DNA of 64,000 nucleotides. It comes from Squalus acanthias. Its lineage: Eukaryota. The first letter of the stretch is position 1. Each line of letters starts with the position of its first letter. The stretch covers positions 19,964,001 through 20,028,000 of the forward strand of contig CM059449.1 of the NCBI GenBank assembly GCA_030390025.1, given 5' to 3'. Below, one piece after another: positions 6,658-33,970 of the stretch. Made by a program: the position numbers and the translations under genes. The notes below the pieces were generated by a model, which did no database searches, had not been told where the DNA came from, and saw nothing but the letters and a program-made list of their open reading frames with translations.

Positions 6658-6756
6658 TTTCTCTCTCCACGATGCTTCCTGACCTGCTGAGTATTTCCAG
6701 CATTTTCTGCTGTTGTTTCAGTGGTTCTACAGTATTTATGTATCATTGCTACATTT

Positions 6757-11490: not shown

Positions 11491-11538
11491 TTCCTCTGAT
11501 CTCTCACTGATGAGCTTATGTCGTTTCTCTCCTAGAAC

Positions 11539-11611
11539 ATGTTTTTATTCCACTCACATTCCCTCACAGAGCAGTCCTGGTTAATACTGTTCCTGTTCAT
11601 CACTGACCCAG
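11539..11611 (+). CDS. CD2/SLAM-family receptor A, leader (signal peptide) exon
   Basis: Acceptor tttctctcctag|aacATG; encodes MFLFHSHSLTEQSWLILFLFITDP; phase-1 donor CCAG|gtagga; splices in frame to the V exon. Confidence 0.78.
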
Positions 11612-12342
11612 GTAGGAAAAAGTCTGCTTAATATCATTAGCACAATCATCAGAATACAACAGGGGTGAGTTACATTAAAATGTTTGTCTTGTCTGTTTAA
11701 AACAGTCAGCGATCGGGGACAAGATGTAGGTTTATTAATAAAAATTCAAGTGATTCTATCTCTATCTCAGTCTCCGTCTCCCCATATGTTGTCATAACTG
11801 TGTTAATGATCTGTTTGGGTTCTTTACTTTTTCAGTACAACAAATGGCCTTTCAGCCCATCATGCCCGTTCTATCTCGAATCCCATTTTTTTGCTCTGTC
11901 CCCATTCCTTTACACTTTTCAAATATTTTCTTCTGCCTTAAAGGTCATGACCACTTTTATACATTTATTATCTGTGTGTGTGTGTGTGCATGTACTTATG
12001 TATCTATCGTTGTTTGTGGCCTTATTTGTGTGTCTGTGTACTGATCTGTGTATCTGTTTGTCGCTCTTTTTGTACCTGCCCATGTCTCTCTGTTTATGTG
12101 TCAATGGGTCTATGTGTTAGGTAAATATTGAACTTTACATCTATTTGAATTTATTTGGGGCCAATTGATGAGAAAATTAAGACAGGTATAGGTAGAGCAA
12201 GAGTAGTACAGTTAAAGAGTGAATGGTGCCCAGTTAATTCTAGGGCAATAATGAGAGGTAAATTTGAGAGACGCCACAGACTGATTGGATGATGATTACA
12301 ATGTACAAGACCAGGAATATGGGCTGTAATCGCACTCTCCCC

Positions 12343-12790
12343 AACAACAACAACTTGTATTTATATAGTGCCTTTAACGTAGTAAGACGTCCCAAGGCGC
12401 TGCACTGGAGTATTTTAAGACAAAAAATTTGACACCGATCCACATAAGGATAAATTAGGGCAAATGACCAAAAGCTTGGTCAAAGAGATAGGTTTTAAGG
12501 AGCGTCTTAAAGGAGGAAAGAGAGGTAGCGAGGCGGACAGGTTTAGGCGGGGAATTCCAGAGCTTAGGGCCGAGGCAACAGAAGGCACGGCCACCAAAGG
12601 TTGAGCGATTATAATCAGGGATGCTCAAGAGGGCAGAATTAGAGGAGCGCAGATATCTCGGGGTGGGGGGTTGTGGGGCTGAAGGAGATTACAGAGATAG
12701 GAAGGCGCGAGGCCATGGAGGGATTTCAAAATAAGGATGAGAATTTTGAAATCGAGGCGCTGCTTAACCGGGAGCGCCAATGTAGGTCCA
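12343..12790 (-). mobile_element. L2 LINE 3' end (unit B copy ~30803-31245)
   Basis: L2 tail with (ttg)n and the usual 3' ORF sequence. Confidence 0.87.
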
Positions 12791-12812
12791 GAACCTTACC
12801 GACAGTTTGTTG

Positions 12813-12938
12813 GTCTCTGGCAAAGGTCAAAGGGATTCCGGCCCCTCGGCACCTGGTGAATGGGACTCTGGGACAGTCAGTAACTTGACCATCAATTATA
12901 TCCGAAGCCGAACCTCTGATAATTACTTGGCACTTCAG
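12813..12938 (+). pseudogene. Relic N-terminal half of an IgV exon (unit B copy ~31271-31396)
   Basis: KGIPAPRHLVNGTLGQSVT*PSIISEAEPLIITWHF aligns without gaps to VGNPVPRRLVNGTRGQSVTLPVNIPGTELESITWDF and contains an in-frame TGA. Confidence 0.82.
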
Positions 12939-13274
12939 CCCTCATCTACAGTCTCTGCAGCTCTATGAGATGTGACTCCCAATCAGGATGGAGAACAGAC
13001 TTCACAGGGCTGTTTATTAAAGAGCCCGAGGTTCTCCTTCCCATGCAATGATCCTGGGAAGGGGGAAGGTCTGAGGGGTCTTGTCAAAAGGCAGCTGCTC
13101 CCCACAAAAAGGAGCTTCACAAAATGTGCTGCACAAAGTTGGTGGAGAATATGTTCTGAAATGTTCGGCATCGGTTTAAAAAGTGCAGCAATAGATATCA
13201 CACAGTAAAACCGCAGGCACCAACACACCAGAACTAAAGGCACTAACGGGCTTGTCCTTCTGTTTCTGTTCCAG

Positions 13275-13613
13275 GTCTGGGAGAGGCTGTGGGTAATCCA
13301 GTCCCTCGACGCCTGGTGAATGGGACTCGGGGACAGTCAGTTACTTTACCAGTAAATATACCAGGAACAGAACTTGAGTCAATTACATGGGACTTCAGAA
13401 ACTTAATCACTGGGAAAAAGATTCAAGTATGTGGAAAAGTCCTAAACAAACCAGCAAAATGTAACAATGAGCTGGGAGAGAGGTTCAGGTTAATCCTCAC
13501 CGACTACAGCCTGGAAATACAGAGCCTGATAAAAAGTGACCAAGGTCTGTATGAAGTTAATGCAAGATCAGAACAAGATGTGCATGAAGAAGTGGTGGAA
13601 CTGCGAGTTTACG
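13275..13613 (+). CDS. CD2/SLAM-family receptor A, IgV exon
   Basis: tttctgttccag|...TACG|gtaatc, 339 nt, phase 1-1. Encodes VNGTRGQSVTLP...ITW...YSLEIQSLIKSDQGLYEV...ELRVY and lacks the canonical B/F-strand Cys pair, as in CD2/SLAM V domains. Confidence 0.93.
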
Positions 13614-13680
13614 GTAATCTCACTTTAATTAAAGAAGTACATTTTCTGATCTAACAATTTTTATGTAGTTAAAGATGATA

Positions 13681-13882
13681 GGGGAGATCTTCCTGGGTCT
13701 GTGCCCAAGTGCCCTGGGTCATGTGGGCGAAGTGAGTACTGGAAAATCGGACGGGTTGGAGCGCTTGCCTGTAAAGGAGCCTGCCATATTTCCCTCTATT
13801 TATATTAATGGAGGAAAATTGGGCTGGCTCCTCGAAGGGAGTGCGCTCCAACCCACCCGATTTTCTGTTGTGTGTTTGGGTC
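13681..13882. mobile_element. Hairpin MITE (~200 bp; unit B copy ~32139-32340)
   Basis: ggggagatcttcctgggtctgtgcccaa pairs with ttgggtcagacccaggaaaatcttcct; inner arms gggttggagcgc and gcgctccaaccc. Confidence 0.75.
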
Positions 13883-13927
13883 AGACCCAGGAAAATCTTC
13901 CTCGCTATTCTGAGTTTTGTTGTATGT

Positions 13928-14149
13928 ACTTCAGAAACTTAACCACTGGGAGAAAGATTCAAGTATGTAGGAAAGTCCTAAACAACCCAGCAAAATATAA
14001 CAATGAGCTGGGAGAGAGGTTCAGGTTAAACCTCAATGACTATAGCCTGGAAATACAGAGCCTGATAAAAAGTGACCAAGGTCTGTATGAGGTTAATGCA
14101 AGATCAGAACAGGACATATACGATGAAGCGGTGGAACTGCGAGTTTACG
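13928..14149 (+). pseudogene. Duplicated C-terminal half of the IgV exon with an intact donor (unit B copy 32386-32607)
   Basis: Encodes FRNLTTGRKIQVCRKVLNNPAKYNNELGERFRLNLNDYSLEIQSLIKSDQGLYEVNARSEQDIYDEAVELRVY, followed by G|gtaatc. About 91% identical to the V exon. I found no phase-1 acceptor upstream. Confidence 0.85.
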
Positions 14150-15164
14150 GTAATCACTTGTTCAGTAACGCAGGGATTCCTTGTGTCAGATTATTGCCCT
14201 CCTCCATGAATTGCGGGAGGGTAAAAGTTAGAGAATGCAAATGTCAGTGAGGAAACACTAGAAATGAGTGTGAAGTCAATTTGTAATTATTTAATTTAAC
14301 CGTTATTAATTACAGTTTTATGTTTAACAATTGGGATTACAAATCACTAATGATGCAACTCTCAGGCAGTTTCCATATTGGGGTAGTTATGGGCAATGTT
14401 CCTGCTCAGGTGCGCAGGCGTGCAGTAAACCGAATGGTCCCGCGCAGGCCGCTCACCGGCTTTTACATTGTAAAAACCACACATGCGCAGAAATTTAAAG
14501 TGACCACACAGTAAAAGAAACAGGCCGCACAGAACAAAGCGCCGCTTACAGCGAATATTGGATAGGGGATATTAACAGGCGGGAACATTGACAGCATCAT
14601 TGTAAGAACATAAGAAATAGGAGCAGGAGGAGGCCATTTGGCCCTTCGAGCCTGCTCCGCGATTCAACAAGATCACGGCTGATCTTCTACCACATCTCCA
14701 CTTTCCTGCACTATTGCGTCTACCTGTACAGTAGTTTGACAGACTGCCAGATTAATCGATCTCTGTGGTTCTTTACTCTAGAAACAGTGAGAACGGAGAG
14801 TGACTCCAAGTCGCCGGTTATTAAACAGAAATCCCACACACTCACGTGACATGAATTTGAAGTCAGGACAGAAGGGGAGCAAGATTATTATTTTGCCCCT
14901 CTATTGCCTAATTAGATTTAAACATGGGCCCTGCCTGCCTGGTCTGATGTTAAGGTGGATGTTAAAGATCCCACTAGACTATTTGAAGAAGAGCAAAGAG
15001 CTCGCGTGATATCCTGGCCAATATTTCTCCTTAAACCAACATCTCCAAAATCAGATTAACTAGTTATCTAACTCATTTGTCAGCTCCTGCTGTATCCAAA
15101 TTAGCTTCAGTGTTTACCTGCATAACAACAGTGACTGCAATTCAAAGACATTTATCTCTTTAAG

Positions 15165-15365
15165 GTCGGAGAGGAATTTCCCAGATTTTGTTCCCCCAAA
15201 ATTGGCCTGGGTTTTTAATGTTTTTTTGCCTCTCCCAGGAGATCACATGGCTTTGGATGGGGTGGAGAGTATATATTGCGATGCACAAGGTATCACAATT
15301 GTGTGGGATGGGTTGGATGGACCAGAGGGGTTTCTTCCTGTCTGGCATTGTTCGTATGTTCATAA
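15165..15365 (+). mobile_element. CR1-type LINE 3' UTR/tail fragment (also ~33625-33825, and on the minus strand at ~57540-57750)
   Basis: Shares ttttgcctctcccaggagatcacatggc...ggatggaccag...ttgttcgtatgttc with the other copies. Confidence 0.65.
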
Positions 15366-15508
15366 GTACTTTGAGACGTTTCTGGAGAGAAGTAACGAGG
15401 TGCTGGATATATGCAAAAGTTGTTATTTTAAAACCAGTTTCTTCAAAGTCTGTTCACCAAATATGTGGGCCACTGCACCGATGTTAACAAGATTTCATTC
15501 ATTTACAG

Positions 15509-15799
15509 AACGTGTATCAATTCCAAGAATACAGATCAGCGTCTCCTCTGATGGGATCTGTAATATTACCCTGAGCTGTTCAGTGGAGAGCGGCGATGAC
15601 CTGATCTACAGCTGGTGGAGAGGTGGAGGGGAGGTCACAGCTGACGGGTCACACAGTGTGACTGACGGTGGGAGGAGACTGGCAGTGTCCTTAAGTCCAC
15701 ACGATACCAGCACAGTGTACAACTGCACAGTGAGAAACCCCGTTAGTGAGAAGACTGGGAGCGTCGACCTCGCAGGCCCCTGTAACATCACCAATAAAG
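15509..15799 (+). CDS. CD2/SLAM-family receptor A, IgC2 exon
   Basis: tcatttacag|AA...AAAG|gtcatt, 291 nt, phase 1-1. Encodes ERVSIPRI...ICNITLSCSVESGDDLIYSW...YNCTVRNPVS...GPC, the 4-Cys SLAM C2 pattern with the NPVS motif. Confidence 0.93.
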
Positions 15800-16292
15800 G
15801 TCATTGTATCGGAGTTAATAGAGAGGTTACTCCAATTAATAATTAAAATGCAGGAATGGTTGTCTGATGTAATGGGAGCTGATAATAAATCTTCTTACTC
15901 GGAGGGTTAGATAAACAGCACCTTTCAAATTAGAGTTCTACCCAATTTAAACAGGTGGGGGTAGAAATTTGCCGTGGGCAGTTTTGCAAAACGGGCGACA
16001 TCACATCCGTTATAGATCCCGTTTGATACTGAGTTCAATTAAAGTCAATACATAGAATTACACAGTATTTACAGCACAGAAACAGACCATTCGGCCCAAA
16101 ACATCTACGCCGATGTTTCTGCTTCATACGAGCCTCCTCCCACCCTACTACATCTCACCCTTTCAGCATATCCTTCTATTCCTTTCGCCCTCATGTGCCT
16201 TCCCCTTGAATGCATCTACGCTATTCGCCTCAACTGCTCCATGTGGTAACGAGTTCCACATTCTCACCGCTCTCTGGGTAAAAAAAATAGAA

Positions 16293-17075
16293 ACATAGAA
16301 GATAGGAGCAAGAGTAGGCCATTCAGCCCCTCGAGCCTGCTCCGCCATTCAATGAGATCATGGCTGATCATCCAAACTCAGTACCCTGTACCTGCCTTCT
16401 CCCCATATCCCTTGATCCCTTTAGCTTTAAGAAATATATCTAATTCATTCTTGAATATATTTAATGACTTGGCCTCAACTACCTTCTGTGGTAGAGAATT
16501 CCACAGGTTCACCACTCTCTGGGTGAAGAAATTCTTCCTCATTTCTGTCCGAAATGGCTTACCCCTTATCCTTAGATTATGACCCCTGGTTCCGGACTCT
16601 CCGACCATCGGGAACATTCTTCCTGCATCTAGTTTGTCCAGACCTGTCAGAATTTTATATGTTTCGATGAGATCCGCTCTCATTCTTCTATACTCCAGCG
16701 AGTATAAGCCCAATCGACACAATCTCTCCTCATATGTCATTCCTGCCATCCCAGGTATCAGCCTGGTGAATCTACGCTGAACTCCCTCCATGGCAAGAAC
16801 ATCCTTCCTCAGATAAGGCGACCAAAACTGCACACAATACTCAAGGTGTGGTCTCACCAAGGCCCTGTACAACTGCAGCAGGACATCCTTGCTCCTGTAC
16901 TCAAACCCTTTCACTATGAAGGCCAACATACCATTTGCCTTCTTCATCGCCTGCTGCACCTGCATGCTTACCTTCAGCGACTGGTGCACAAGGACACCCA
17001 GGTCTCGTTGCACTTCCCCTTCTCCCAATCTATTGCCATTCAGATAATAGTCTGCCTTTCTGTTTTTGGCAGAAC
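16293..17075 (-). mobile_element. Young CR1 LINE 3' fragment, unit-A specific, TSD aaaatagaa
   Basis: Uninterrupted 216-aa ORF at 16378-17028 (LVRPHLEYCVQFWSPYLRKD...FFTQRVVNLWNSLP). TSD at 16284-16292 and 17076-17084; empty site at ~34750. Confidence 0.93.
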
Positions 17076-17438
17076 AAAATAGAACTGATTATTAAGCGGG
17101 TCGTGTAACGGGCCGGCAATGCTACACCACCCGATTTGGATAACCAGCCAAGATGAATTTCCACCTTGTGGTAAATGTTTCCAGGTTATTCAATGGAAAG
17201 TAACATTGGACAGGGTGTACAACAGGCAGACGATCCACTAACACCACTTTTCCACCCGACGGAGAAAGTTAAAATGACCCCCTCTTAAGAGTGTTTGTAA
17301 TAAAAACAATTATTTTAGATTTTTTTAGTAGATATATCAATATTCCACCAAATATTGCAGTAATATTAAGCTTGATTGTTGATCCCACAGCAAGGGGTTG
17401 AAAGCAGAGAGTTATTGTTTCTTTCTGTATGTTTCTAG

Positions 17439-17578
17439 GCAGTGGAAGAGATGAGGGAGACGGCACTCTGCACTCGGCTCAGATCCTGGGAATACGAGCT
17501 GCGATATTCATTGCTGCTGTCGTTACCACTATCACTGGGGTTTACATCTGGGAGCAAAGAACAGTTAAAGGAAACTGA
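17439..17578 (+). CDS. CD2/SLAM-family receptor A, stalk/TM/short-tail terminal exon (full protein 280 aa)
   Basis: tttctgtatgtttctag|GC, phase 1. Encodes GSGRDEGDGTLHSAQILGIRAAIFIAAVVTTITGVYIWEQRTVKGN*, with the TM Arg codon CGA at 17495-17497 and TGA at 17576-17578. Confidence 0.87.
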
Positions 17579-18329
17579 GAGACTGTTTACAGCTTTGTAC
17601 AGCAACAATCTAGTCTTTCAGAGGGAACTCTGGACACGGCAACAGGAGGGAAAATTAAAGTCACTGCTGAGGGTCAACGTTCAAAGACACTGACAACAGG
17701 ATTAATACAGCCACACGTCCAAGTTCATTCTTTATACTTCAGCTGTCCTTGATCACTGAGCCGGGAGACCACTTGAACCTGATTCCCACGTGTCATATCA
17801 AAAAACAATGCAGCATTGGAAGATGGAGAGCATAAAAGATCATGAAGCACGAACAAAGTTGTTCAGCCAACCCAGTCTGCTCGCTCCACAGACCCGGTAC
17901 AATCTACCCTCTCATGGTCTCTACCCGAATCCATTCCAATTGTTTTGGGAAGGTCCTGTAGTTGGTCCCTGCTTAACCATCAAACTGTCAAGTTTTTTTT
18001 CATGTTTATACCATCTGGACAGGAGCCTGTGTCAAGACGCATTGTTGGTGTATAATCTGATAATTTGTAGTTATAATTCTACAGTCAGTGAGATATGTTG
18101 TACAATATAAATTCACTGAACTTTGGACTGTGCAGGGACAAATGAGTTTGCTTTCCTCTCGGCAAAGAAGTGACAGATCATCACTGCTTGTTTAGTACAA
18201 TTTCTTACTGTTGTGTGCAGTAAATGTATTCCAGCCTTCCTGGCGAGCTGGTACCTCAGCAATAAGAAGATATTTACACTTTCACGGTTAACGCTTTACA
18301 ACTCAGAGCACGGAGTGGCCTTTAAAGAA

Positions 18330-18710
18330 AAACTTGCATTTATATAGCACCTTTCACGACCACAGGACATCCCAAAGCGCTTTGGAGCCAATGAAGTACT
18401 TTTGAAGTGTAGCCACTGTTGTAATGTAGGAAACGCGCAGCAAGATTCCAAAAACAGCCATGTGATGATAACCAGTTACTCTGTTTATTAAAGTGATGTT
18501 GGTTGAGGGGTAAATATTGGTCAGGACACCAGGGAGAACGCCCCTGCTCTTCAAAATAGTGTCATGGGATCTTTTACGCCCACTTTGAGGGGAGACGGGA
18601 CCTCGGTTTAACATCTCATCCTAGATTTTGTGCTGAAATCTCTGGAGTGGGACTTGAACCTACAACCTTCTGACCCAGAGGTGAGAGTGCTACCAGCTGA
18701 GCCACAGCCC
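18330..18710 (-). mobile_element. Deu-SINE (unit B copy ~35990-36368)
   Basis: Reverse-complement tRNA head, part of the Deu core and the L2 tail. Confidence 0.85.
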
Positions 18711-19679
18711 CAAGACTGGCTTTCACCTTTAAAAATCTGGATATTTATATCTATCTTCGAGACGAGCAAATGAAATGTTCACCTGTTGGAGTAACACTTA
18801 CAAAGTGTAACTTTCAACTGATGTTTAAGCTTAGTTTTTAAACTTAAAAACTTGCAAGTCAGTTGGCAGTGAACGGTCAGTGAGCTGTAAGTAGGTCAGC
18901 TGTTAAGTACACATTGTGTGGTTGGGGGCTGACTAATTAGTTGAGATTGGTTTGTGTCTGAAAGGTTTAGAAAGGGGGATACTTGCAAGAGCCCAGCAGT
19001 TAACTGGGAACGGAGTGAGGACTTCTAAAACGGGAATTTGATGAGAGTGGCAATTCAGTGCAGAAGGGGAGGGAGGTGCTCAGTAAATTAACCGAGGAAC
19101 AAAAGCTACGTTTTCTCCTTTTATTCACACTTTAATAAAGGGTGTCAAACTCAATTTACATGGCGGGCCAGATCAGACATCCTGGAACTTCGCATTGACA
19201 ACACTGGGGTAGAAATTGTTGTGCGTTTTGCCCATTTGTTGGGCGCAATGTATACCAATTTCTGGGCACGAGGTCCGGCACCTATTCTGCGCTGGCAGCA
19301 TGGCCATATTGGTCCTCACTGTTTTTAGGTGTCCCTGGCTGTTGCCCGAGATCAGCGGTGGATCAATTTAAATAGGAACATCGGAACAAGAGTAGGCCAT
19401 TCAGCCCCTCGATCTTGTTCCGCCATTCAATGAGATCATGGCTGATCTGTATCCCAACTCCATTCACCTGCCTTGGCTCCATATCCCTTACTACACTTGG
19501 CTAGGAAAGATTTATCGAGCTCAGATGAAAAATTATTGGCCTGGATTTTGCAGTCGGCGGCATAACTACGGATTACACGCCGGCATCTGAATGGGAACCT
19601 ACCTGATGGGGACCCTCCTCCGTGAACTTGCTGGTAGGCGCTGCGTAGTAGAGGGCAGCGTATTGGCCCACAGATCTCT

Positions 19680-20005
19680 GGGGCGTATTGCATATCCGAT
19701 GCCAGGGTAAAGGATATCTCGAAGCACAAGAAAGTAACTTGGAAAGGGAGTGGGAAGAACCAGTTGTCCTGATCCATGTCAGAAACAGCGACATGGAAAG
19801 AAAGCGAGGAGGTCGTTAAGGGAGTATCAGGAGCTCAATTAAAAAGCAGGACCTCGAGAGTGATGATCTCCGGAGTCTAAACAAGTGGTGTGACGAGTTA
19901 TGGCAGCAGTACTGGAACAGGAAGGAGCTGGGACGGGCTGCACCTGAGACCAAGATCCTCACGGAAAGGATAAACAGGACTGTAGAATGGACTTTAAACC
20001 AGCAT
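19680..20005 (+). mobile_element. CR1 ORF1 (esterase) relic with internal deletions (unit B copy ~37775-38100)
   Basis: DARVKDIS...LEREWEEPVVLIHV...GAQLKSRTS...WQQYWNRKEL...RINRTVEWTLN resembles the CR1 ORF1 SGNH-esterase C-terminus. Confidence 0.7.
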
Positions 20006-20887
20006 GGCATCTAACGGCATCTCTGGCCCTTATTGCGGAAGATGTTAGAGGCTTAAATTTTCTTCTCTGCTACCTCACTGGTGTATCCCATGTAGAAATC
20101 CCAAGCATTGTGGAGCCTCACATCCAGCTCTGTAAGGTAGTTACGCCTGCTTCATGCAGTCATAGTTACGACTGGTAGGATCCCACTAGTCGTGCCCTCA
20201 AAAAGTGACGGCAGGACACAGGAAGTAATGAACGGAAGAAGAAGCGCCCGCGCTCCTCTGTTGGAAGATCCCGTCAGGGCAGAAATCGGCTCCTGCCCCT
20301 TCGCTCGCACTACACCAGACTTCTTCCCCGCAGAACAGTCAAACTTTTGGTCTGTTTCCTCTAGTTACAGCTCCTGACCACCCACCCCATCCATCCTCAC
20401 TAGGCTAACGAACATTAATCCACCAGGTCTCTCTACCCCTCCATTCTGAGTTTCACGTCCCTCACACAGCCCCATCTCACTTCTGGTATTTGTACCAGTC
20501 AAAGCTCAGTGCCCCATCTGGACATTTATTCTGTATCAGTCTTATTTCATTTTCCACTCATTTCTGTGCCAGCTTCCTCTCCTGTGTATAGTTCTGTCCT
20601 ACCTACATTTGTGACCTCTCCAACCTTGCAATGTTAACACGTTTGTCCAGAGTTGTGGGCTGAAGGCCCTAGCCAGTGTGCCTGGAGTATCTTACTTTGC
20701 ATGATCAACTGTGAATTTCTGCAATCTTGGTGGTGTAAGGTAATAGTAAAACTTGTCCAGTAAATATTGGCATTTCCAATACTCATTATACATACATTGA
20801 AGGCTATTGGATCAAGCTCTGTCCCTTTTTCCTGATATATGCACAAGGGAACTGAACAGAATGCTACCATACACAGCTATGGTGATT

Positions 20888-21185
20888 GTGCACTGTCGGA
20901 GGTGCCATCTTTCGGATGAGACATTAAACAGAGGCCCCATCTGCCCTCTCAGGTAGGTGTAAAAGATCCCATGACACTATTTCAAAGAAGAGCAGGGGAG
21001 ATCGCCCCCCAGTGTCCTGGCTAATATTTATCTGTCATCCAACATTACTACAAAAAAGATTATCTGCCACGTTTCCTACATAAAAGTGACTATACTTCAA
21101 AAGTACTTCATTGGCTGTAAAACGCTTTGGGACGTTGTGACGTCGCGGAAGGCGCTATATAAATGCAAGTTCCTTCTTTTCTTTT
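20888..21185 (+). mobile_element. 5'-truncated Deu-SINE (unit B copy ~38980-39330, with an internal ~53-bp tandem duplication)
   Basis: Deu core plus L2 tail. Confidence 0.85.
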
Positions 21186-22037
21186 AAGATGAACTGGCTT
21201 ATAAGTACAATCCAGCGTAATTTGATATTTAACTGCAGTGCAATCACATGATTACAGTACAACCGTTACTGGCACAGACATAACTTAAGGGTATCGTAGT
21301 ATCTCAGCATTGGCTTGGTTCGCTTGATTACAGTGTAGCAAAGATTAATGTGCATGCCATATTTCAAGATTTTTCTTGTCTATTTTGACAGGGCGGTGGG
21401 GGCGGGGAGGGGGAGATGGTGTTTCTTTAAGCAAAGAATATTTTCAGAACTTCAAAAGAAAAGCACCTGGATGAAAGGTGGTTAATATACTAAGTGGAAG
21501 TGGCTTTCCCCAAGAGACTAAATAATAAGTCTTAGCATATCTAGGTAATCAAAAAACAGCTTATCCCCATTGCGTTGGGAAGCCCTTTAATCTCGTGTCT
21601 GCCTGGATACAGGGGGAGCTAAAAAGAAAGAGACAGGCTTTTTGAAACAGGAAGGTTGCAAGGGCAGTCCAATTTTATTCAAGGGAAAACTGAGGGCTTT
21701 CACTGAATGAGGCAAAGAGGTTCGAAATGCTGGAGGCTAGTGAGCAGCCAGCTTGTTCAAGTCAACCAAGACAAGCCACTGATGTCGTCCTGCATGGCAT
21801 GTTCTTTATTTTGTATTATTACACAAAGATGAATTTTACGGATTGAATTAATTAAGTCTGATTGATCATAAAGGCTGTTCTGTATGCTCAACTTTCTATG
21901 AAATAAAGCAGCTTAAAAATTCACATCTGGCCTCATCTTACCAAGTGTTTGTTCAATCCGCCTTCAGAAAAATTGAAGAGGTGCACTTGCAAATGACAAT
22001 AATTTCCATTTCAGGTCGCAATGGGTACTATTATTAT

Positions 22038-22268
22038 TGAGAGGTCGCACAACACCAGGTTATAGTCCAACAGTTTTATTTTAAATCACAAGCTTTCGGA
22101 GCTATCGACTGCCCCTTCCTCAGGTGTTTTTACTTCACCTGAGGAATGGGCAATCGATAGCTCCGAAAGCTTGTGATTTAAAATAAAACTGTTGGACTAT
22201 AACCTGGTGTTGTGCGACCTCTCAATTTTGTCCACCCCAGTCCAACACCGGCATCTCCGCATCATGAC
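22038..22268. mobile_element. Penelope-derived foldback insertion carrying hammerhead ribozymes on both strands, unit-A specific
   Basis: 91-bp inverted repeat (22036-22126 and 22136-22226, 2 mismatches) plus a 42-nt tail. 12-bp TSD tactattattat at 22026-22037 and 22269-22280; empty site at ~40161. Confidence 0.88.
22135..22176 (+). ncRNA. Minimal hammerhead ribozyme (mirror copy on the minus strand at 22086-22126)
   Basis: tcac-CTGAGGA-a-tgggc-aatcgata-gctcc-GAAA-GC-TT-gtga; the minus-strand copy has stem II ggggc/gctcc. Confidence 0.72.
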
Positions 22269-22334
22269 TACTATTATTATGCCCATGTACAAACAGATAC
22301 AGGGCAATAGGAGTCAACTCACACAAAAGTAAAA

Positions 22335-22690
22335 AATAAAAACAGAAAATGCTGAAGATACTCAGCAGGTCAGGCAGCATCTGTGAAGACAGAAACAGAG
22401 TTAACGTTTCAGGTTGATGACCTTTCGTCAGAATTGGAAAAAAGCAGGAAATGGAACAGATTTTTAAGCAAGTGCAGGGGCTGGGAAAGAGGGGAGGGGA
22501 TGAAAGAACAAAAGGGAAGGTCTGTGATAGGATAGAAGGCAGGAGAGGTTAAGAGACATTCAAGGCAAAAGGAGATGGTAATGGGACAGGTTAAGAAACA
22601 CAAAAGTAAGATGCTTGCACCACTAACAGGAGCAAATGATGTCATTATACCCCAGAAGGGATCTATGGCAGACTTGTTGCAGTCCAAGGC
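22335..22690 (-). mobile_element. Penelope 3'/LTR fragment with hammerhead motif at 22399-22435 (unit B copy ~40220-40580, motif at 40288-40324)
   Basis: Reverse complement of the 6440-6720 tail; the unit B copy reads agtt-CTGACGA-aaggtc-atc-gacct-GAAACGTT-aact. Confidence 0.82.
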
Positions 22691-23676
22691 TACCATATGG
22701 CTCAGTGAGGTTTAGGATTGCAGTTCTTATTTAATGATTTGCTGACAAGATAACGGCTTCGAACATACGGACTGTTCCTGTGATGTGAATGCAGAGATAT
22801 CTGCTCCCTCAGGCAGATTGAATGACTACCGGGGGGTTCTACACTTCTGGAAATACCCAAGGCAGGTCTGCAGCCTTCTTTGTTCAGTGGTTTCTTCGCA
22901 TCCAGGGTCTTAGCTAACCTTGCATATGCACATTTTTCTGTATTGCTATACGATCAATAAAATCTCACACATTGCTCAGAAACATGAGTGATTAAATAGT
23001 GGGAATACACTTCACAAATTCCGTTTAACCAGTTTTTAATCTTATACTTTCACTCTTAATCCTCTTTCTGCAGAACTATTTTGAGGACTCATTACATCCA
23101 GTCTAACTTCTGTACTTTCTAGAAGTTCAGGGCACTCTTTGGAAACTATCTAGATAGCTCCTTCGCTCTTTATCTCTCCTGCTCTCTGCTTTCCTTCTAA
23201 CTTTTCTCTTCCTTTCTGCCTCAGTTTCTATGATTTTGGGGTGGTGAATAGCACAGGTTTGATATCTAAAATCCCACTTACAAAACAAACCTTTTTGGAA
23301 CCAAATCTGAGCGATAGAGTTAAAAAGGATTATCTGTCATAGGGATCGCTTCAGAAATGCCAATTATTTGGATAGGCATGTGTCAAATTATGACAGCCAC
23401 ATTTGAAAACTTGTCAAAAACCAAATCTTGATCAGTTCGTATTGTTTAATAGTCCATAGCAATTAGCTACAGCTATTCGCCACCATGCTGAGAGTGACAT
23501 CATCTTAAAAGCCTCTGTTTATCTCAGAGCTGTGTTCCCAAACAAGTTGACTCATCAATGTCCATTTCAGCCTGTTACAGGACACTAGCGGCCCCAATTT
23601 AAATCTCACAAAATGGTTCCCACCCCTGCCAAAGCACTGGAATGGTCCAAATCAAAGTCACAAATGTCATCCAATG

Positions 23677-24780
23677 TTCCATACCAGTGCTGCCGATATG
23701 TCTTCCTTTTTCCTCAACCGAGGATTCCCCTCTACCGTGGTTGACATGGCCCTCCGTGTCCGTTCCATTTCAGGCACTTCTGCTCTCACCCCTTCCCCTC
23801 CTTCCCAGAATCACGATAGGGTTCCCCTTGTCCTCACCTTTCACCCCACCAGCCTCCACATTCAACGGATCATCCTCCGCCATTTCCGCTACCTCCTGTG
23901 TGATCCCACCAGCAAACACATCTTCCCCTCCCCTTTCAGCATTCCGAAGGTACCACTCCCTCCGTGACACCCTGGTCCACTCCTCAATCACCCCCAACAT
24001 CCGCTCCGTGTCCCACGGCACCTTCCCGCGCAAGTGCAACACCTGCCCTTTTACCTCCTCCCTTCCCACCGTCCAGGGCTCCAAACACTCCTTCCAGGTG
24101 AAACAGCGATTTACTTGTACTTCTTGCAATCTAGTATACTGTATTCACTGCTCACGATGCGGACTCCTCTACATTAGGGAGACCAAACGCAGATTGGGTG
24201 ACCGCTTTGCGGAACACCTCCGTTCAGTCCGTAAGCGTAACCCTGAGCTTCCGGTCGCCTGTCACTTTAATTCTCAGCTCCACTCCCACTCTGATCTCTC
24301 CATCCTCGGCCTCTTACACTGTTCCAACAAAGCTCGAGGAATAGCACCTCATCTTTCGATTAGGCACTTTACAGCCTTCTGGACTCAACATCGAGTTCAA
24401 CAGTTTCAGACTATAACCTCGGCCCCTATGTTTTCTTTTTCTCTCACATGGCAGCTGTTGATGATTCTGCCATTGTCATTTACACCTCATCTAGAGTCAT
24501 CTTTTGTTTCTTAACTTGTCCCCTTACCATCTCCTTTTGCCTTGCACCATCATCCCTTTTGTCTTTTCATCTCCCCTGCCTTCCACCCAATCACAGATCT
24601 TCCCTTTGTTCTTTCCTCCACTCCCCCCTTTCCCTGCCCCTGCACTTGCTTAAAAATCTGTTACATCTCTAACTTTTTCCAGTTCTGACGAAGGGTCATC
24701 GACCTGAAACGTGAACTGTTTCTCTCTCCACGACACTTCCTGACCTGCTGAGTATTTCCAGCATTTTCTGGTGTTGTTTC
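23677..24780 (+). mobile_element. Penelope-like element with GIY-YIG endonuclease, 5'-truncated at the duplication junction
   Basis: Encodes FQVKQRFTCTSCNLVYCIHCSRCGLLYIRETKRRLGDRFAEHLRSVRKRNPELPVACHFNS; LTR hammerhead at 24680-24718. Confidence 0.9.
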
Positions 24781-27402
24781 AGTGGTTCTACAGTATTTAT
24801 GTATCATTGCTACATTTTCAACAACTACTTGTATTTATAAAGCACCTTTCATGTCGTAAAACGTCCCAAGGCGTTTCACAGGTGCGTTATCAAACAAAAT
24901 TTGACACCATGCCACATAAGGAGATATTAGGACAGGTGACTAAAAGCTTGGTCAAAGAGGTAGAGAGGCGGAGAGGTTTAGGGAGGGACTTCCGGAGATT
25001 TAGGCCTAGGCAGCTGAAGGCACAGCCGCCAATGGTGGGGCGATGAAAATCGGGGATGTGCAAGAGGCCAGAATTGGAGGAGCGCAGAGATTTCAGATGG
25101 TTCGAGGACAGGAGGAGGTTACAGGGATAGGGAGGGGCGACAACATGGAGGGAGTGGAAGACAAGGAATAAAATGTTAAAACTGAGGCATTGCCAGACCG
25201 GGAGCCAATGTAAGGCAGCGAGCATAGGGGTGATGTAAGAAGGGACTTGGTGCAATTTAGGATCAGGGCAGCAGAATTTTGGATGAGCTCAAGCTTATGA
25301 AGGGTGGAAGATAGGAGGCCAGCCAGGAGAGCATTGGAATAGTGAAGTCTAGAGGTAACAAAGGCGTAGATGATGGTTTCAGCAGCAGATGAGCTGAAGC
25401 AGGAGCGGAGACGGGTGGTGATGGAGCAGAAACGTGGTCGGAAGGTCCTCTCGGGGTCAAATAGGACGCCAAGGTTCCAAACGGTCTGAATCAGCCTCAG
25501 ACAGTGGCCAGGAAGAGGGATGGAGTCGATGGTTAGGTAACGGAGTTTGGGGCAGGGACCGAAGACAATGGCTTCGGTCTTCCCAGTATTTAGTCGGAGG
25601 AAGTTTCTGCTGGTCGAACAAGCAGCGTGACAAATCAGAGACAGTGGAGGAGTCGAGAGTGGTGGTGATTCACAATGCACGATGGGGACGCAGACCTCAG
25701 AACTGCCCAACCCAAAGAGAGGAACGCCAACCATAAAGAAATTTATCTATGCAACTTTCTATCTTTGAGATAATGGGAAGGATCACAGAGGTCAATCACT
25801 TATAGCCGGAGGCTTCTCATTCACTGTGCCCAGTAGGGCTTAGCTGGGCAGACGTTTCCATATCTCAGGCTCCTACATCAAAAATGAGATGACTCAATCA
25901 GAGTGGTAAATCCGATTGATGGCTTGGCGGACTAAACTCCACAATCTTAAAGGGAGTTTTATTCTCTCTCTTTTACAGGAACAGCAACATGACAGTAAAC
26001 ACAGAACCAGTCTGGATCAACTAGCTTGAAAGTTAGTTTCCACTCACAATGTCAATAGAGAGTGCGTTTTTGTTATTTTTCATGACACGAGGAGTGGTAA
26101 GAAATTGAGAGGTCTCACTGTGAACAGTACTCTGCTCGTTCACAGATTTCATGTAAAATAACCCCGTTTATTGGTTTTCAATTGTGCCTCGTTTTGCTGG
26201 AGTGCTTTTCAGTCTGCCTTCCATAAAACAAAACCATTTCAACAACATCCTACAACAGAGTGGAGATATGGCCAATTTAAAGAGCCGGGTTCTTGCAGGG
26301 TTTATTTTTAGTGCAAAAATCCAGGAGAAAACCAGTGGCGAAAACCGGACCTCCCAAAAAAGCCCAGGTAAATTTGGGAAGTAAGGGTCTCAAAAATATA
26401 GTCAAGCTGATTGACAACTATTATTTACACAATTCAGTGACACCACTTTTATGCAGCTCACCATCTGACTTCCACTTAACCCGTAGATAGATTTTTTTTC
26501 AAACTAAAAGTAAAATTGAGGAATCTATGTTTACAGCTGTGCCTCCAGTTAACTATGATGGTGGGATGTTAAAAATTGTTGGAGATTATGCAGAGCGGAA
26601 TAGTTGCAATCTTGCTTTCAGTAAACGGTGCCTTTGGTGTGTGCCCGGTGTCAGCCTTTGATCGGTGACCTGAGGCTTGAAGGGACTAGTATTTATGCTA
26701 CCTAGCAGTACACTGCTGTTCTTGCTCCATGCTTGACTAGGAATGAAAGACTGACATTTCATGCAGCATAAAGAATAGTCCTCACAGCAACTTGTAACGT
26801 TCATCGAGGTCCCCTTAAAAACATCAAATTGCACAGCCTTCCATTTGTTTTCCTGCTGAAAATTGGACCCAGAGATGCACGTGCATCACATCACTGTGCA
26901 CGCTGCCTGACACAGACAGCATGCGGTGTGCACACGTGAACAGGAGTGGGCCATTCAGCCCCCTCGAGCCTGCTCCGCCAATCAATGGCTCATCTGTGCC
27001 TCATCTCCACTGTCCCGCCTCAGCGCCATGTCCCTTGACAGTTGACACCCTTACAAACTGAGCGATTTGTGCATATTTCTACATCTAATTTTTAGCAAAA
27101 TAGAAGACGGGGAGAAATTTCGGTTTGTTTTTCCCCAACAGGAAGTCAGTTTTTACAGATCCTAAAAAATAACTGAGAATTTATCAGTGGAAGTCGGTAA
27201 AAGTCCCTAAATATTGGCCATGACACCAGAAGTGTTCCATCCACGACTTCAAATGGTGCCATTACATCTTTAATATCCACCTGAACCCTCAGGGCCTCAG
27301 TGTAGCATCTCATCAAAGGACGATGTACAGTACAGCACTAGACCTAGAGTATAAGCACAAGTCCAGGAGCTGGCTTTCTCTAACTCACAAGGATCACTAT
27401 AG

Positions 27403-27884
27403 GAAGGACGTGGAAGCATTGGAAAGAGTGCAAAGGAGATTTACCAGGATGCTGCCTGGTTTGGGGGGGAGGTCTTATGAGGAAAGATTGAGGGAGTTAG
27501 GGCTTTTCTCTTTAGAGCGGAGGAGGATGAGAGGCGACTTAATAGAGGTTTATAAGATGATGAGGGGGATAGATAGAGTGGATGTTCAGAGACTATTTCC
27601 TCGGGTGGAGGTAGCTGTTACAAGGGGGCATAACTATAAGGTGCATGGGGGGAGATATAGAAGGGATGTCCGAGGTAGATTCTTTACTCAGAGAGTGGTT
27701 GGGGTGTGGAATGGACTGCCTGCTGTGATAGTGGAGTCGGACACTTTAGGAACTTTCAAGCGGTTATTGGATAAGCACATGGAGCACACCAGAATGATAG
27801 GGAGTGGGATAGCTTGATCTTGGTTTCGGACAATGCTCGGCACAACATCGAGGGCCGAAGGGCCTGTACTGTTCTATGTTCTAT
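27403..27884 (+). mobile_element. Young CR1 LINE 3' fragment, unit-B specific
   Basis: Encodes RKDVEALERVQRRFTRMLPGL...FFTQRVVGVWNGLP, with a (ttctatg)n tail. TSD gatcactatag / gatcacgatag at 27392-27402 and 27885-27895; empty site at ~9421. Confidence 0.93.
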
Positions 27885-30003
27885 GATCACGATAGAATCA
27901 GTAACAGGCGACGTGCTCTAGTTTAAAATAACTAACAGCGAGGTGGATGTGGGTTGAGGTCCCCATTCTGCACCTCAGTAGCCTGTTGAGAGTTAAGCTC
28001 TCGTGCAAATGGCCAAACATGTAGAAAGCCAACCAGCTCACTGACCATTTCAAGGAATAGATAAGGAAACAGGTTTAGTCTGAAATATTCTGCTGTATCT
28101 CATATTCTATTGAGAAATGCCGTTTACAGAAGTAAAAACAAAAGGAAGGGCTCGTGCTGCTGAGCTGCGGCTCTCGGTGAATGTTGGGTGACGCTAACTC
28201 TGGTGACCATCACCGATTATCTTGACTGTGGCTTCTCCTTTAACTGCTTGCACAAGCTGCAGGAAATGACCAGCTTCAACCCACCCATCTGCTGCTGATC
28301 AGTGCAGTAAATAGTTACCAAGTATAGTGAGAGAAACACAGACCAGATGGGCTGTGATGGATTTCCAGTGAAACCAGATCAACGCCCAGAGGATGCGGTG
28401 CTGGATCTGATCGGGGTCATATTGTGAAGGCTCCTGTTCAGTACAACGTGATTTCCGAGCTCACCCTGTCTGGAGAGACCGGATGATCCCTGTGTACTTG
28501 ATGTGCATCGAGGTGTCTGATCATCTTCCAACACAGCTGCACCCCTTGTAAACTTGGAGCCATTGGGTAAGACCTTATTGTAGTCTCTTTGTTTGAATCT
28601 GTTGAGAAGAACAGTTTCCATTTGAGTTCAAGTATCTCTTGTCACTGATGAATAGAGTCCATGTCACTTTAAAGTGAATTCGGCCTTTCTCTCTTCCTTC
28701 TCATGAGTTGAATTATTCCTGGTCGTGGTTTAACAATGAGAATTCCACTATCAGTTCAGGTCGCTGCTTCTGGTGGGGAAACCTCCCTCTTACTAGCTCC
28801 TAATGTTTGCTTTTCAACTCTTTAAGGTCATTTTAATCTAACTCGCCAGGCAGGATACCCACGGGATCGGGGTAACACTGGTTTTAAACCCAGCCCAATA
28901 TTACTCTCCACTGACGTCGAATATCGGTGGCCATCAAATACCACCTCATCCAATCTTCCGGTTAACATGGGCGTTTGGTAAAAATAAAATCAGACAGTAC
29001 ATGTGCACCAGTCCAATTACACACAGCTCAAAGGGGAATGCACAATTCCCCCTTCGGAGGAACGAGGGATGATTGCAGCAATCGGGAGCTCCCGGGCAGG
29101 GTGGGCAATACAGCCCATAATATTGCAATCATTAAAAATTGGAAATTGGACGGAAAATCCTGAGTTACTGCCCCACGAGTTTCTGTTCTGTGCTCCCAGC
29201 CATCACCGACCCTGGCTGCGAGTGAGCAGTCAATGTACACGAACCAGCCAATCGGCTCTGACATCAGACACTATTTCAACAGTAAGTTGGAGGAAATGTT
29301 CGCTACAGGCCCTACCGAGGCACTCCACCAATAAACTGAACCACAACCAATTGTTTTATACTAAATCCTTTCTATCCAATACATTAAATGTGATTAATTT
29401 TTTGACATTTCATGTCTGATTTCTTCACACCCAGGAGATTTATTAAACTGTCTATTGGACTGTGGGAGACCCGTGGTTTCTCAGTCCCTTGTGTCAGCTG
29501 TGGCTCAGTTGGTAGCACACTCGCCTGAGTCAGAAGTTTCTGGGGTCAAGTCCCACTCCAGAGATTTCAGCACAAAAATCTAGGCAGACACTCCAGTGCA
29601 GTGCTAAGGGAGTGCTGCATTGTCGGAGGTGCCGTCTTTCGGATGAGACGTTAAAACGAGGTCCCGTCTGCTCTCAGGTGGACGCAAAAGATCCCATGGC
29701 ACTATTTCAAAAAAGAGCAGGGGAGGTATCCCCGGTGTCCTGGCCAATATTTATCCCTCGATCAACATAACAAAACAGATTATTTGGTCATTATCACATT
29801 GCTGTTTGTGGGAGCTTGCTGTACACAAATTGGCTGCCGTGTTTCCCACATTACAAGAGACTACACTTCAAAAAGTACTTCATTATCTGTAAAGCGCTTT
29901 GAGACGTCTGGTGGTCGTGAAAGGCGCTATATAAATGCAAGTCTATCTTTCTTTCTTCCTCTGATCTCTCACTGATGAGCTTATGTCGTTTCTCTCCTAG
30001 AAC

Positions 30004-30076
30004 ATGTTTTTGTTCCACTCACATTCCCTCACAGAGCAGTCCTGGTTAATACTGTTCCTATTCATCACTGACCCAG
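30004..30076 (+). CDS. CD2/SLAM-family receptor B, leader exon
   Basis: Same acceptor, ATG and donor as receptor A; encodes MFLFHSHSLTEQSWLILFLFITDP. Confidence 0.78.
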
Positions 30077-31732
30077 GTAGGAAAATCTCTGCTTAATATC
30101 ATTAGCACAATTATCAGAATACAACAGGGGTGAGTTACATTAAAATGTTTGTCTTGTCTGTTTAAAACAGTCAGCGATCGGGGGCAAGATGTAGGTTTAT
30201 TAATAAAAATTCAAGCGATTCTATCTCTATCTCAGTCTCCGTCTCCCCATATGTTGTTGTAACTGTGTTAATGATCTGTTTGTCTTTACTTTTTCAGTAC
30301 AACAGATGGCCTTTCAGCCCATCATGCCCGTTCTATCTCGAATCCCATTTTTTTGCTCTGTCCCCATTCCTTTACACTTTTCAAATGTTTACTTCTGCCT
30401 TAAAGGTCATGACCACTTTTATACATTTATTATCTGTGTGTGTGTGTGCATGTACTTATGTATCTATCGTTGTTTGTGGCCTTATTCGTGTGTCTGTGTA
30501 CTGATCTGTGTATCTGTTTGTCGCTCTTTTTGTACCTGCCCATGTCTCTCTGTTTATGTGTCAATGGGTATATATGTTAGGTAAATATTGAACTTTACAT
30601 CTATTTGAATTTATTTGGGGCCAATTGATGAGAAAATTAAGACAGATATAGGTAGAGCAAGAGTAGTACAGTTAAAGAGTGAATGGTGCCCAGTTAGTTC
30701 TAGGGCAATAATGAGAGGTCAGTTTGGGAGATGTCACAGACTGATTGGATGATGATTACAATGTACAAGACCAGGAATATGGGCTGTAATCGCACTCTCC
30801 CCAACAACAACAACTTGTATTTATATAGCGCCTTTAATGTAGTAAAACATCCCAAGGCGCTGCACAGGAGTATTTCAAGACAAAAAATTTGACACCGAGC
30901 CACATAAGGATAAATTAGGGCAGATGACCAAAAGTTTGGTCAAAGAGATAGGTTTTAAGGAGCGTCTTAAAGGAGGAAAGAGAGGTAGCGAGGCGGACAG
31001 GTTTAGGCGGGGAATTCCAGAGCTTAGGGCCTAGGCAACAGGAGGCACGGCCACCAAAGGTTGAGCGATTATAATCAGGGATGCTCAAGAGGGCAGAATT
31101 ATAGGAGCGCAGATATCTCGGGGTGGGGGGTTGTGGGGCTGAAGGAGATTACAGAGATAGGAAGGGGCGAGGCCATGGAGGGATTTCAAAACAAGGATGA
31201 GAAGTTTGAAATCGAGGTGCTGCTTAACCGGGAGCCAATGTAGGTCCAGAACCTTACCGACAGTTTGTTGGTCTCTGGCAAAGGTTAAAGGGATTCCGGC
31301 CCCTCGGCACCTGGTGAATAGGACTCTGGGACAGTCAGTAACTTGACCATCAATTATATCCGAAGCCGAACCTCTGATAATTACTTGGCACTTCTGCCCT
31401 CATCTACAGTCTCTGCAGCTCTATGAGATGTGACTCCCAATCAGGATGGAGAACAGACTTCACAGGGCTGTTTATTAAAGAGCCCGAGGTTCTCCTTCCC
31501 ATGCAATGATCCTGGGAAGGGGGAATGTCTGAGGGGTCTTGTCAAAAGGCAGCTGCTCCCCACAAAAAGGAGCTTCACAAAATGTGCTGCACAAAGTTAG
31601 TGGAGAATATGTTCTGAAATGTTCGGCATCGGTTTAAAAACCACAGCAATAGATATCACACGGTAAAACCGCAGACACCAACACACCAGAACTAAAGACA
31701 CTAATGGGCTTGTCCTTCTGTTTCTGTTCCAG

Positions 31733-32071
31733 GTCTGGGAGAGGCTGTTCGTAATCCAGTCCCTCGACGCCTGGTGAATGGGACTCTGGGACAGTCAGTT
31801 ACTTTACCAGTAAATATACCAGGAACAGAACTTGAGACAATTACCTGGGACTTCAGAAACTTAATCACTGGGAAAAAGATTCAAGTATGTAGGAGATTAC
31901 TAAAGAACCCAGCAGTCTGTGAAAGTGAGCTGGGAGACAGGTTCAGGTTAAACCTCACCGACTACAGCCTGGAAATACAGAGCCTGATAAAAAGTGACCA
32001 AGGTCTGTATGAAGTTAATGCAAGATTAGGACAAGGTGTGCATGAAGAAGTGGTGGAACTACGAGTTTACG
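31733..32071 (+). CDS. CD2/SLAM-family receptor B, IgV exon
   Basis: 339 nt, phase 1-1; encodes VNGTLGQSVTLP...VCRRLLKNPAVCESELGDRF...ARLGQGVHEEVVELRVY. Confidence 0.93.
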
Positions 32072-33970
32072 GTAATCTCACTTTAATTAAAGTAGTACAT
32101 TTTCTGATCTAACAATTTTTATGTAGTTAAAGATGATAGGGGAGATCTTCCTGGATCTGTGCCCAAGTGGCCTGGGTCATGTGGGCGAAGTGAGTACTGG
32201 AAAATCGGACGGGTTGGAGCGCTTGCCTGTAAAGGAACCTGCCATATTTTCCTCTATTTATATTAATGGAGGAAAATTGGGCTGGCTCCTCCAAGGGAGT
32301 GCGCTCCAACCCACCCGATTTTCTGTTATGTGTTTGGGTCAGACCCAGGAAAATCTTCCTCGCTATTCTGAGTTTTATTGTATGTACTTCAGAAACTTAA
32401 TCACTGGGAGAAAGATTCAAGTATGTAGGAAAGTCCTAAACAACCCAGCAAAATATAACAATGAGCTGGGAGAGAGGTTCAGGTTAAACCTCAATGACTA
32501 TAGCCTGGAAATACAGAGCCTGATAAAAAGTGACCAAGGTCTGTATGAGGTTAATGCAAGATCAGAACAGGACATATACGATGAAGCGGTGGAACTGCGA
32601 GTTTACGGTAATCACTTGTTCAGTAACGCAGGGATTCCTTGTGTTAGATTATTGCCCTCCTCCATGAATTGCGGGAGGGTAAAAGTTACAGAGAATGCAA
32701 ATGTCAGTGAGGAAACACTAGAAATGAGTGTGAAGTCAATTTGTAATTATTTAATTTAACCGTTATTAATTACAGTTTTATGTTTAACAATTGGGATTAC
32801 AAATCACTAACGATGCAACTCTCAGGCAGTTTCCATATTGGGGTAGTTATGGGCAATGTTCCTGCTGAGGTGCGCGGGCGCGCAGTAATCCGAAAGGTCC
32901 CGCGCAGGCCGCTCAACGGCTTCTGCATTGTAAAAACCGCGCATGCGCAGAAATTTAAAGTGACCACACATTAAAAGAAACAGGCCGCACAAAACAAAGC
33001 GCAGCTTACAGCGAACATTGGATAGGGGATATTTACAGGCGGGAACATTGACAACATCATTGTAAGAACATAAGAAATAGGAGCAGGAGTAGGCCATTTG
33101 GCCCTTCGAGCCTGCTCCGCCATTCAACAAGATCACGATTGATCTTCTACCACATCTCCACTTTCCTGCACTATTGTGTCTATCTGTACAGTAGTTTGAC
33201 AGACTGTCAGATTAATCGATCTCTGTGGTTCTTTACTGTTGAAACAGTGAGAACGGAGAGCGACTCCAAGTCACAGTTTGTTAAACAGAAATCCCACACA
33301 CTCACGTGATATGAATTTGAAGTCAGGACAGAAGGGGAGCAAGATTATTATTTTGCCCCTCTATTGCCTAATTAGATTTAAACATGGGCCCTGCCTGCCT
33401 GTCTGATGTGGTGTTAAGGTGGATGTTAAAGATCCCACGAGACTATTTGAAGAAGAGCAAAGAGCTCGCGTGATATCCTGGCCAATATTTCTCCTTAAAC
33501 CAACATCTCCAAAATCAGATTAACTAGTTATCTAACTCATTTGTCAGCTCCTGCTATATCCAAATTAGCTTCAGTGTTTACCTGCATAACAACAGTGACT
33601 GCACTTCAAAGACATTTATCTCTTTGGGGTCGGAGAGGAATTTCCCCGATTTTGTTCCCCCAAAATTGGCCTGGGTTTTTAATGTTTTTTTGCCTCTCCC
33701 AGGAGATCACATGGCTTTGGGTGGGGTGGAGAATATATATTGCGATGCACAAGGTATCACAATTGTGTGGGATGGGTTGGATGGACCAGAGGGTTTTTTC
33801 GGTCTGGCATTGTTCGTATGTTCATAAGTACTTTGAGACGTTTCTGGAGAGAAGTAACGAGGTGCTGGATATATGCAAAAGTTGTTATTTTAAAACCAGT
33901 TTCTTCAAAGTCTGTTCACCAAAAATGTGGGCCACTACACCAATGTTAACAAGATTTAATTCATTTACAG

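Follow-up and report, generated by a model that had tools for sequence, protein, structure and literature searches.

Short-tailed CD2/SLAM-type genes of Squalus acanthias that probably mirror two versions of an ITSM-tailed neighbour

Two tandem genes, A and B, lie within a 64,000-nucleotide stretch of Squalus acanthias DNA (contig CM059449.1 of assembly GCA_030390025.1, positions 19,964,001 to 20,028,000, forward strand), which we call the window. Together with a third gene, C, they have the plan of the CD2/SLAM receptors, i.e. a distal IgV and a proximal IgC2 domain, an anchor and a tail. The tail of C carries an immunoreceptor tyrosine-based switch motif (ITSM) that is absent from A and B. 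We think it probable that A and B are intact short-tailed genes whose V exon was inserted from gene C, and that they came to differ on the predicted binding face by conversion with two versions of C, themselves likely driven by selection, and not by independent divergence since their duplication. In this view each of the two likely reflects a separate version of gene C, itself changing fast, and their faces differ accordingly. The pattern is one already known in evolution, here met in another family, and the transplantation of the exon has left an unusually clear record; conversion and selection on the binding face are already known in CEACAM and other paired receptors, as are arginine-anchored SLAM genes in Xenopus.

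The face that differs between A and B

The V exons of A (13275..13613) and B (31733..32071), on the forward strand like all the features of the window located below, are each 339 nt long and bounded by AG and GT. They differ at 24 nucleotides, giving 16 replacement codons and three that are purely silent. Eight of the replacements are found in codons 53-64, the C'-C'' stretch, and three in the F-G loop, at codons 98, 99 and 101. Over a span of 222 nt, 19 sites differ between the intact exons and one between the neighbouring 3' half-exons. All these figures, which had been put forward in an earlier reading made from the sequence alone, were the same on recounting. The densest window of the A/B alignment has 13 differences in 36 nt, the next best having seven; the maximum in 300 permutations was nine, and none of 20000 within-exon shuffles equalled the observed clustering. 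The cluster as treated below covers codons 53-68 (13433..13480 in A and 31891..31938 in B), comprising the end of strand C', the C'-C'' loop, C'' and the link to D.

In the predicted structure of the V domain (predicted local distance difference test score 85.9) strand C' spans residues 48-55, F 90-98 and G 101-111, and a short strand at 61-62 is taken as C''. On this model the changes map to the end of C', the C'-C'' loop, C'', the D link and the F-G loop, and of the 15 replacements within residues 11-112 all except two would fall in the C-C'-C''-D-link and F-G segments (p = 0.018). A front face of the GFCC'C'' type is the ligand-binding face of CD2/SLAM receptors. Measured against the non-coding divergence of the two tandem units (3.0%, or 478/15979 sites), the proportion of replacement sites changed (pN = 0.075) is 2.5-fold high (p = 2.5e-4), and to this extent the strong excess of replacements claimed by the sequence-only reading is upheld. 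The relic pair was rejected as a neutral control; it is unusually quiet (p = 0.009) beside the 3.0% non-coding level, only 6.9% of 228-nt windows being equally so.

Gene C provides the third term of the comparison. Of the 62 variable sites in the flanks, 48 unite A with B, but throughout the cluster of A (13433-13480) the grouping is with C, to which it is identical (14/14 sites, Fisher p = 7.5e-10). This switch in the tree grouping, from A with B in the flanks to A with C in the cluster, is most simply explained by conversion between the latter two once the duplication had taken place; on this comparison of sequences the cluster did not arise by divergence of A and B from each other after their split. 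For A, a single tract shared with another paralogue is therefore what we find, the outcome that had been named beforehand as favouring conversion over selection. Polarity is mixed: at three of the 14 sites a letter is common to A and C, against B and the relic, and at the other 11 the letter is B's own. Between B and C, 14 of the 48 nt of the cluster differ, which exceeds the flank level of 9.9% (p = 1.5e-4, in a window chosen post hoc), with 12 replacement changes on 37 replacement sites in codons 53-68. Selection is thus the likely source of the two cluster versions. Of the earlier alternatives of diversifying selection or conversion both appear to operate, in a manner not visible from the window by itself; a ratio of replacement to silent substitution rates (dN/dS) significantly above 1 was not obtained. 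That the selection is driven by pathogens stands as a hypothesis.

A sequon in B and not in A had been read as a gain. The difference is real, but N73 is present in gene C and conserved in 90% or more of 30 aligned sequences, so that the site was lost in A.

The V exons of both short genes lie within a segment related to gene C. In A this insert of ~990 bp (12939..13927) consists of C's V exon with its intron flanks, and it interrupts the V exon that the short gene originally had, separating a 5' half (12817..12938), which is dead, having a stop codon and no clear acceptor, from the 3' half (13928..14149). The equivalent elements of B are the 5' half at 31275..31396, the insert at 31397..32385 and the 3' half at 32386..32607. 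The half-exons join at codon 39-40, and a 7-bp direct repeat is found on each side of the insert; its first copy, at 12932 in A and with one mismatch in B, closes the 5' half, and its second copy opens the 3' half. Because the halves meet at the same codon around a C-like segment, the short gene's own V exon has been split and replaced by a copy of that of C. An origin of the relics as partial tandem duplicates was rejected, as they are complementary halves of one exon. The insert is 88.8% identical to gene C over 974 columns (homology 12956-13929), and its flank has just three matches in the genome, in A, B and C. The flanks of A and B diverge from C by 9.4-9.9%, and from each other by 2.7%; the insertion therefore preceded the duplication of A and B. 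From the sequence we infer that the direction was from gene C to the short gene, though the donor may have been a lost third gene rather than C.

Variation among other individuals was taken from eight of 20 listed sequencing runs (X1, X5-X10 and X12), aligned on B's V exon; the material is assembled contigs, and the sites are those listed, away from contig ends. The RNA status of six runs, including X6-X9, is guessed, none of the listed runs being on record as RNA. The B-type cluster is found on spliced contigs in all four runs guessed as RNA (X6-X9) of one related organism, here called organism-A. All 14 B letters are present in X7 and in one contig of X8, and 12 of 14 in the other X8 contig. 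In X6 a contig of 402 nt joins the leader of gene C to a V exon with eight differences from B; the leader in X8 is also that of gene C, and X6 and X7 run on into a C2 start closest to that of C. The A/C type is found in both of the organism-B runs, and X5, a DNA run of organism-A, has both types. X12 differs from B by 26 changes and a 3-nt gap, as does gene C, and equals C at 23/23 listed sites. There are intermediates, with K, D and V at codon 61, N, D and E at codon 63, and four states at codon 57. The listed variants in X6-X9 comprise 13 replacements and two silent changes, all within front-face segments (codons 35-65 and 94-110), and six of the 11 replaced codons coincide with sites that differ between A and B (p = 0.001). 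These contigs suggest that the B type is an allele family of gene C.

Among the six runs guessed as RNA the leader is that of gene C in four and that of a short gene in none; because contigs drop rare forms, the missing A/B leaders are no evidence on expression either way. The letter that gives B Leu98 (window 32027) is absent from every contig covering that position in the eight runs, and is either a private change or an assembly error. A one-codon deletion in the C-C' loop (window 31862-31866) occurs with both cluster versions (gene C, X12, X1, X5, X7 and X8).

How the difference may have arisen

Selection acting on copy B after the duplication would provide another explanation, in which a new patch formed in B, A was reset from C, and the B patch later entered the long-tailed gene in some populations. 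This agrees with the distances from the relic (30 sites for B, 19 for A), with the derived state in B of 11 of the 14 cluster sites, and with a search of the assembly for other donors of the B patch, in which the five matches were all at this locus. Yet contigs whose sole leader seen is that of C carry the B patch in many polymorphic forms, intermediates included, and 11 changes would have been needed in 48 nt while introns gained ~1.5% per branch, so that we regard this course of events as unlikely. It is very improbable that the tandem is a false assembly of two haplotypes of a single short gene, which would make ours a comparison of alleles. The locus is highly polymorphic and none of the listed contigs, which were aligned on B's V exon, crosses the unit junction, but there is no N in 184 kb, and the units abut and differ by 3.0% plus several-hundred-base indels over 18 kb. 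Were this nonetheless the case, the conversion reading would still hold, at the level of alleles.

A patchwork might also be neutral, formed by conversion among old paralogues and alleles while surface loops were under relaxed constraint, with A and B perhaps serving as unexpressed reservoirs and positive selection playing no part. The codon statistics are compatible with this. The 19 replacement and five silent changes between A and B, on 252 and 84 sites, give a dN/dS of 1.27 (1.61 at a kappa of 3) that is not significant (Fisher p = 0.42-0.24), and we rejected the whole-exon ratio as proof of selection; the 16:3 count of codons, on which a strong excess had been claimed, is itself near the neutral ratio of sites. 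Outside codons 53-68 the exon is at background level (pN = 0.032, and pS, the equivalent for silent sites, 0.041), a conserved glycan site has been lost in A, and the B letter at codon 98 is seen in none of the eight runs. Against neutrality, the 14/48 differences between B and C exceed the flank divergence that dates the insert. Moreover the same codons have changed among individuals and in ten other fish pairs, where 96 differences lie in the front and 28 in the back (expected front share 0.58, the pairs not being independent and loops varying anyway), the A/B sites having changed more than other front sites (p = 0.04, again for non-independent pairs). Both short genes also retain open frames. 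On balance a purely neutral origin seems improbable.

Several observations weigh against the explanation by conversion with selected versions of C. In addition to the dN/dS value, silent changes are raised in the front segments (pS = 0.095), which counts against selection because old tracts without it would give the same result. In Ig domains generally, front-face loops vary more than core strands. The 13:2 ratio of replacement to silent variants in X6-X9 is not significant (p = 0.24), and these runs are from one study of organism-A, their contigs being graph assemblies that are possibly chimeric. As no contig in view extends to the transmembrane exon, and only X6 bridges leader and cluster, the placing of the B version on the long-tailed gene rests on leaders and C2 starts. 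With regard to signalling, the NxxR motif is absent from the A/B anchor, where Arg is present and Leu replaces Asn. In addition, activation as well as inhibition can proceed from an ITSM tail (PMC4718992), so that gene C should not be seen as simply inhibitory.

In the favoured scheme of insertion followed by conversion, long-tailed and short arginine-anchored genes would have coexisted before the main shark groups split, as their shared transmembrane exons suggest. The V exon of the short gene was then, as preserved in the sequence, split and replaced by the exon of C with its flanks, and a later duplication of the gene produced A and B. Repeated replacements at the same codons would diversify the C-C'-C'' and F-G segments, a variation that is observed and probably selected, and short tracts would pass between C and the short genes; the identity of A and C is direct, the presence of the B version on C is indicated by leader-joined contigs, and the direction of the late tracts is one we infer. 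A and B are predicted to signal through an adaptor of the FcR-gamma/zeta type, as activating counterparts recognising whatever exploits C, and both this coupling and a microbial ligand are predictions. Receptor pairs with an on and an off member, under pursuit by pathogens, would be expected to show such a pattern.

Gene structure and signalling ends

Gene A, of 280 aa, begins with a leader exon at 11539..11611 that resembles the leaders of the short-tailed catshark and epaulette shark proteins P0011 and P0009. Its C2 exon (15509..15799) is one codon shorter than in B and C, and its transmembrane exon (17439..17578) encodes an Arg near the outer end, a tail of ~9 residues and a stop. Gene B, of 281 aa, has a leader at 30004..30076, a C2 exon at 33971..34264 and a transmembrane exon at 35104..35243, again with Arg, a short tail and a stop. 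In both genes the frames are open and the introns GT-AG. There is no cysteine in strands B or F of the V domains; Cys52 is invariant and Cys62 variable. A V domain without the B-F disulfide is a feature of the CD2/SLAM family. Among solved structures NTB-A is the sole sequence match (E = 7e-6), and 2B4 and NTB-A occupy ranks 1-4 by fold, at 20-26% identity.

Gene C was found as a third close V exon, upstream of the window, in a genome search with the V exon. It encodes 356 aa, in a leader, V (G000:C26:19931304-19931639), C2, a neutral anchor and two tail exons with AMYAEI and TIYDEI, the latter being the ITSM (consensus TxYxxI/V). The leader of A and B differs from that of C, and their anchor and tail are combined in a single exon. 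Similarity of C to A and B is confined to ~970 bp around V and to exactly the C2 exon; the V identity to C is 94% for A and 85% for B, and the anchors of C and B are 34% identical. The C2 exons of A and B are 94-95% like that of C, with introns unrelated right up to the splice sites, and so C2 too has been converted at this locus. Near-identical ligand domains are thus carried on different signalling ends, and the ligand exon evolves in concert, as in paired receptors.

The first intron of gene C is 42 kb long (G000:C26:19889314-19931304). Further along gene C (G000:C26:19934962-19947100), the anchor exon can be spliced from either of two donors, GC and GT, separated by 4 nt. Use of GC leads to the ITSM tail, while the GT donor with exon skipping leads to the last exon in another frame and a DIYINW (YxN) tail; the same second frame is present in annotated isoforms of several sharks and skates. 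From their sequence the alternative donors could allow splicing to switch the gene from one signalling motif to another.

Eight homologues of the Arg anchor exon, taken together with part of the intron before it (34610-35262), are found elsewhere in the genome (63-72% in protein, 70-81% in DNA), two on C17 (G000:C17:54123813-54123941 and 54396331-54396459) and six on G000:C3542. A Siglec-like V exon is located ~8 kb upstream of the C17 homologues, on the same strand, and an Ig exon ~2 kb upstream of those on C3542, linked in each case by position only. It may be that two receptor families share an anchor exon of the activating type. Used by itself in a protein search, a weak one, this exon gave no match. 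Four other shark short forms likewise have no Asn three residues before the Arg. The TCR-zeta/FcR-gamma family has two matches in the genome.

Other fishes and known receptor pairs

The proteins nearest to the V domains of A and B are shark 'SLAM-like' entries, the best being 74% identical, from a sawshark. Short Arg-anchored forms occur in catsharks, smooth-hound and epaulette shark, with anchors 49-63% identical to the anchor exon of B (34% for that of C), and in the horn shark when read in another frame; P0005 was classed as short on the strength of its end, which corresponds to the short anchor exon when the frame is changed. The V domains of short genes are 77-94% like that of their own long gene and at most 65% like those of other short genes. 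In the V tree, constructed without the partial V domains P0018 and P0022, isoform duplicates and P0001, the short V groups with the long V of its own lineage in the horn shark, bamboo and epaulette sharks, catsharks and skates. A clade of short V domains is rejected by the approximately unbiased test (p-AU = 2e-45, for 19 rows grouped by tail type without skate short forms and chimaera, in a test run after the first tree). The short C2 domains of catshark and smooth-hound do form a clade; C2 is converted in skates as well as here, but not in catsharks, smooth-hound or epaulette shark. The skate short forms P0013 and P0015 have a different anchor, 31% identical to that of B, and thus short partners may have arisen more than once.

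Siglec-5/14, CEACAM1/3 and SIRP-alpha/beta are pairs in which conversion keeps the binding domain of the activating partner matched to that of the partner exploited by pathogens. Those pairs differ from the shark genes in their known microbial ligands and tested adaptors. CEACAM3 is cited in this context in PMC5112662, which describes frog CEACAM pairs with exon-limited conversion followed by the accumulation of replacements on the CC'C''FG face. As there, the shark ligand exon is converted between partners with long and short signalling ends and unrelated introns. Unlike the Xenopus pairs, the shark genes belong to the CD2/SLAM family and share one orientation, their activating side bears an Arg anchor and not an immunoreceptor tyrosine-based activation motif of its own, the exon was first inserted into the partner's own exon, and the short copies, two in number, probably mirror separate versions of the long gene.

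Anchors with NxxR are described for Xenopus CD2/SLAM and FcR-like genes (PMC4536121, PMC2413239). The shark locus resembles these in having a short-tailed CD2/SLAM gene with Arg near the outer end of the anchor and adjacent partners with tyrosine motifs; its anchor differs in lacking Asn, and association with FcR-gamma was assayed for the Xenopus FcR-like proteins, while coupling in the shark is only predicted. In mammals, SLAMF1 binds morbillivirus H and E. coli porins, and SLAMF8/9 are short-tailed and likewise lack an ITSM (PMC4718992). The likeness of the shark genes to mammalian NTB-A/SLAMF6, 2B4/CD244 and CD84 (same source) lies in V, C2 and anchor, with the ITSM in gene C; no one-to-one orthologue has been shown, and 'SLAMF9-like' database names are automatic. 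We found no paper on paired SLAM genes of sharks in an open-access collection that is without most subscription papers. Xenopus CD2/SLAM receptors with NxxR anchors were reportedly described by Guselnikov in 2011. We know of no mammalian short-tailed SLAM member that is a converted twin of an ITSM member.

The locus preserves the way in which an activating partner gained its ligand exon, with a short direct repeat and the old halves kept, so that the direction and the sequence of events can be read from it. It also suggests that separate allele families of a partner can be followed by separate activating duplicates, places pairing with lineage-by-lineage resetting of V across sharks, the oldest group with adaptive immunity, and names about a dozen codons as candidates for contact with microbial ligands. 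It is possible, though we put it forward tentatively, that an ancient shark activating SLAM module, on an anchor exon shared with Siglec-like genes, has been armed anew with copies of the ligand exon from its ITSM partner (in one case through insertion into the module's own exon), the duplicates forming a fixed library of the partner's allele families. One chromosome would then carry activating sensors for both faces to which a pathogen may have adapted. As one face is common to two organisms, there is a hint of trans-species balancing selection.

Tandem units A (5631..23677) and B (23701..41892), found by self-BLAST, form an 18.5-kb duplication. The genome search with the V exon gave 15 matches in total, five of them at the A/B/C locus. 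The other ten are only 33-39% identical, lie on G000:C5, C323, C487, C3550 and C3668, and may be other CD2/SLAM clusters. Self-BLAST of the window also shows self-inverted elements at 22036-22226 (94%) and 13742-13865 (76%).

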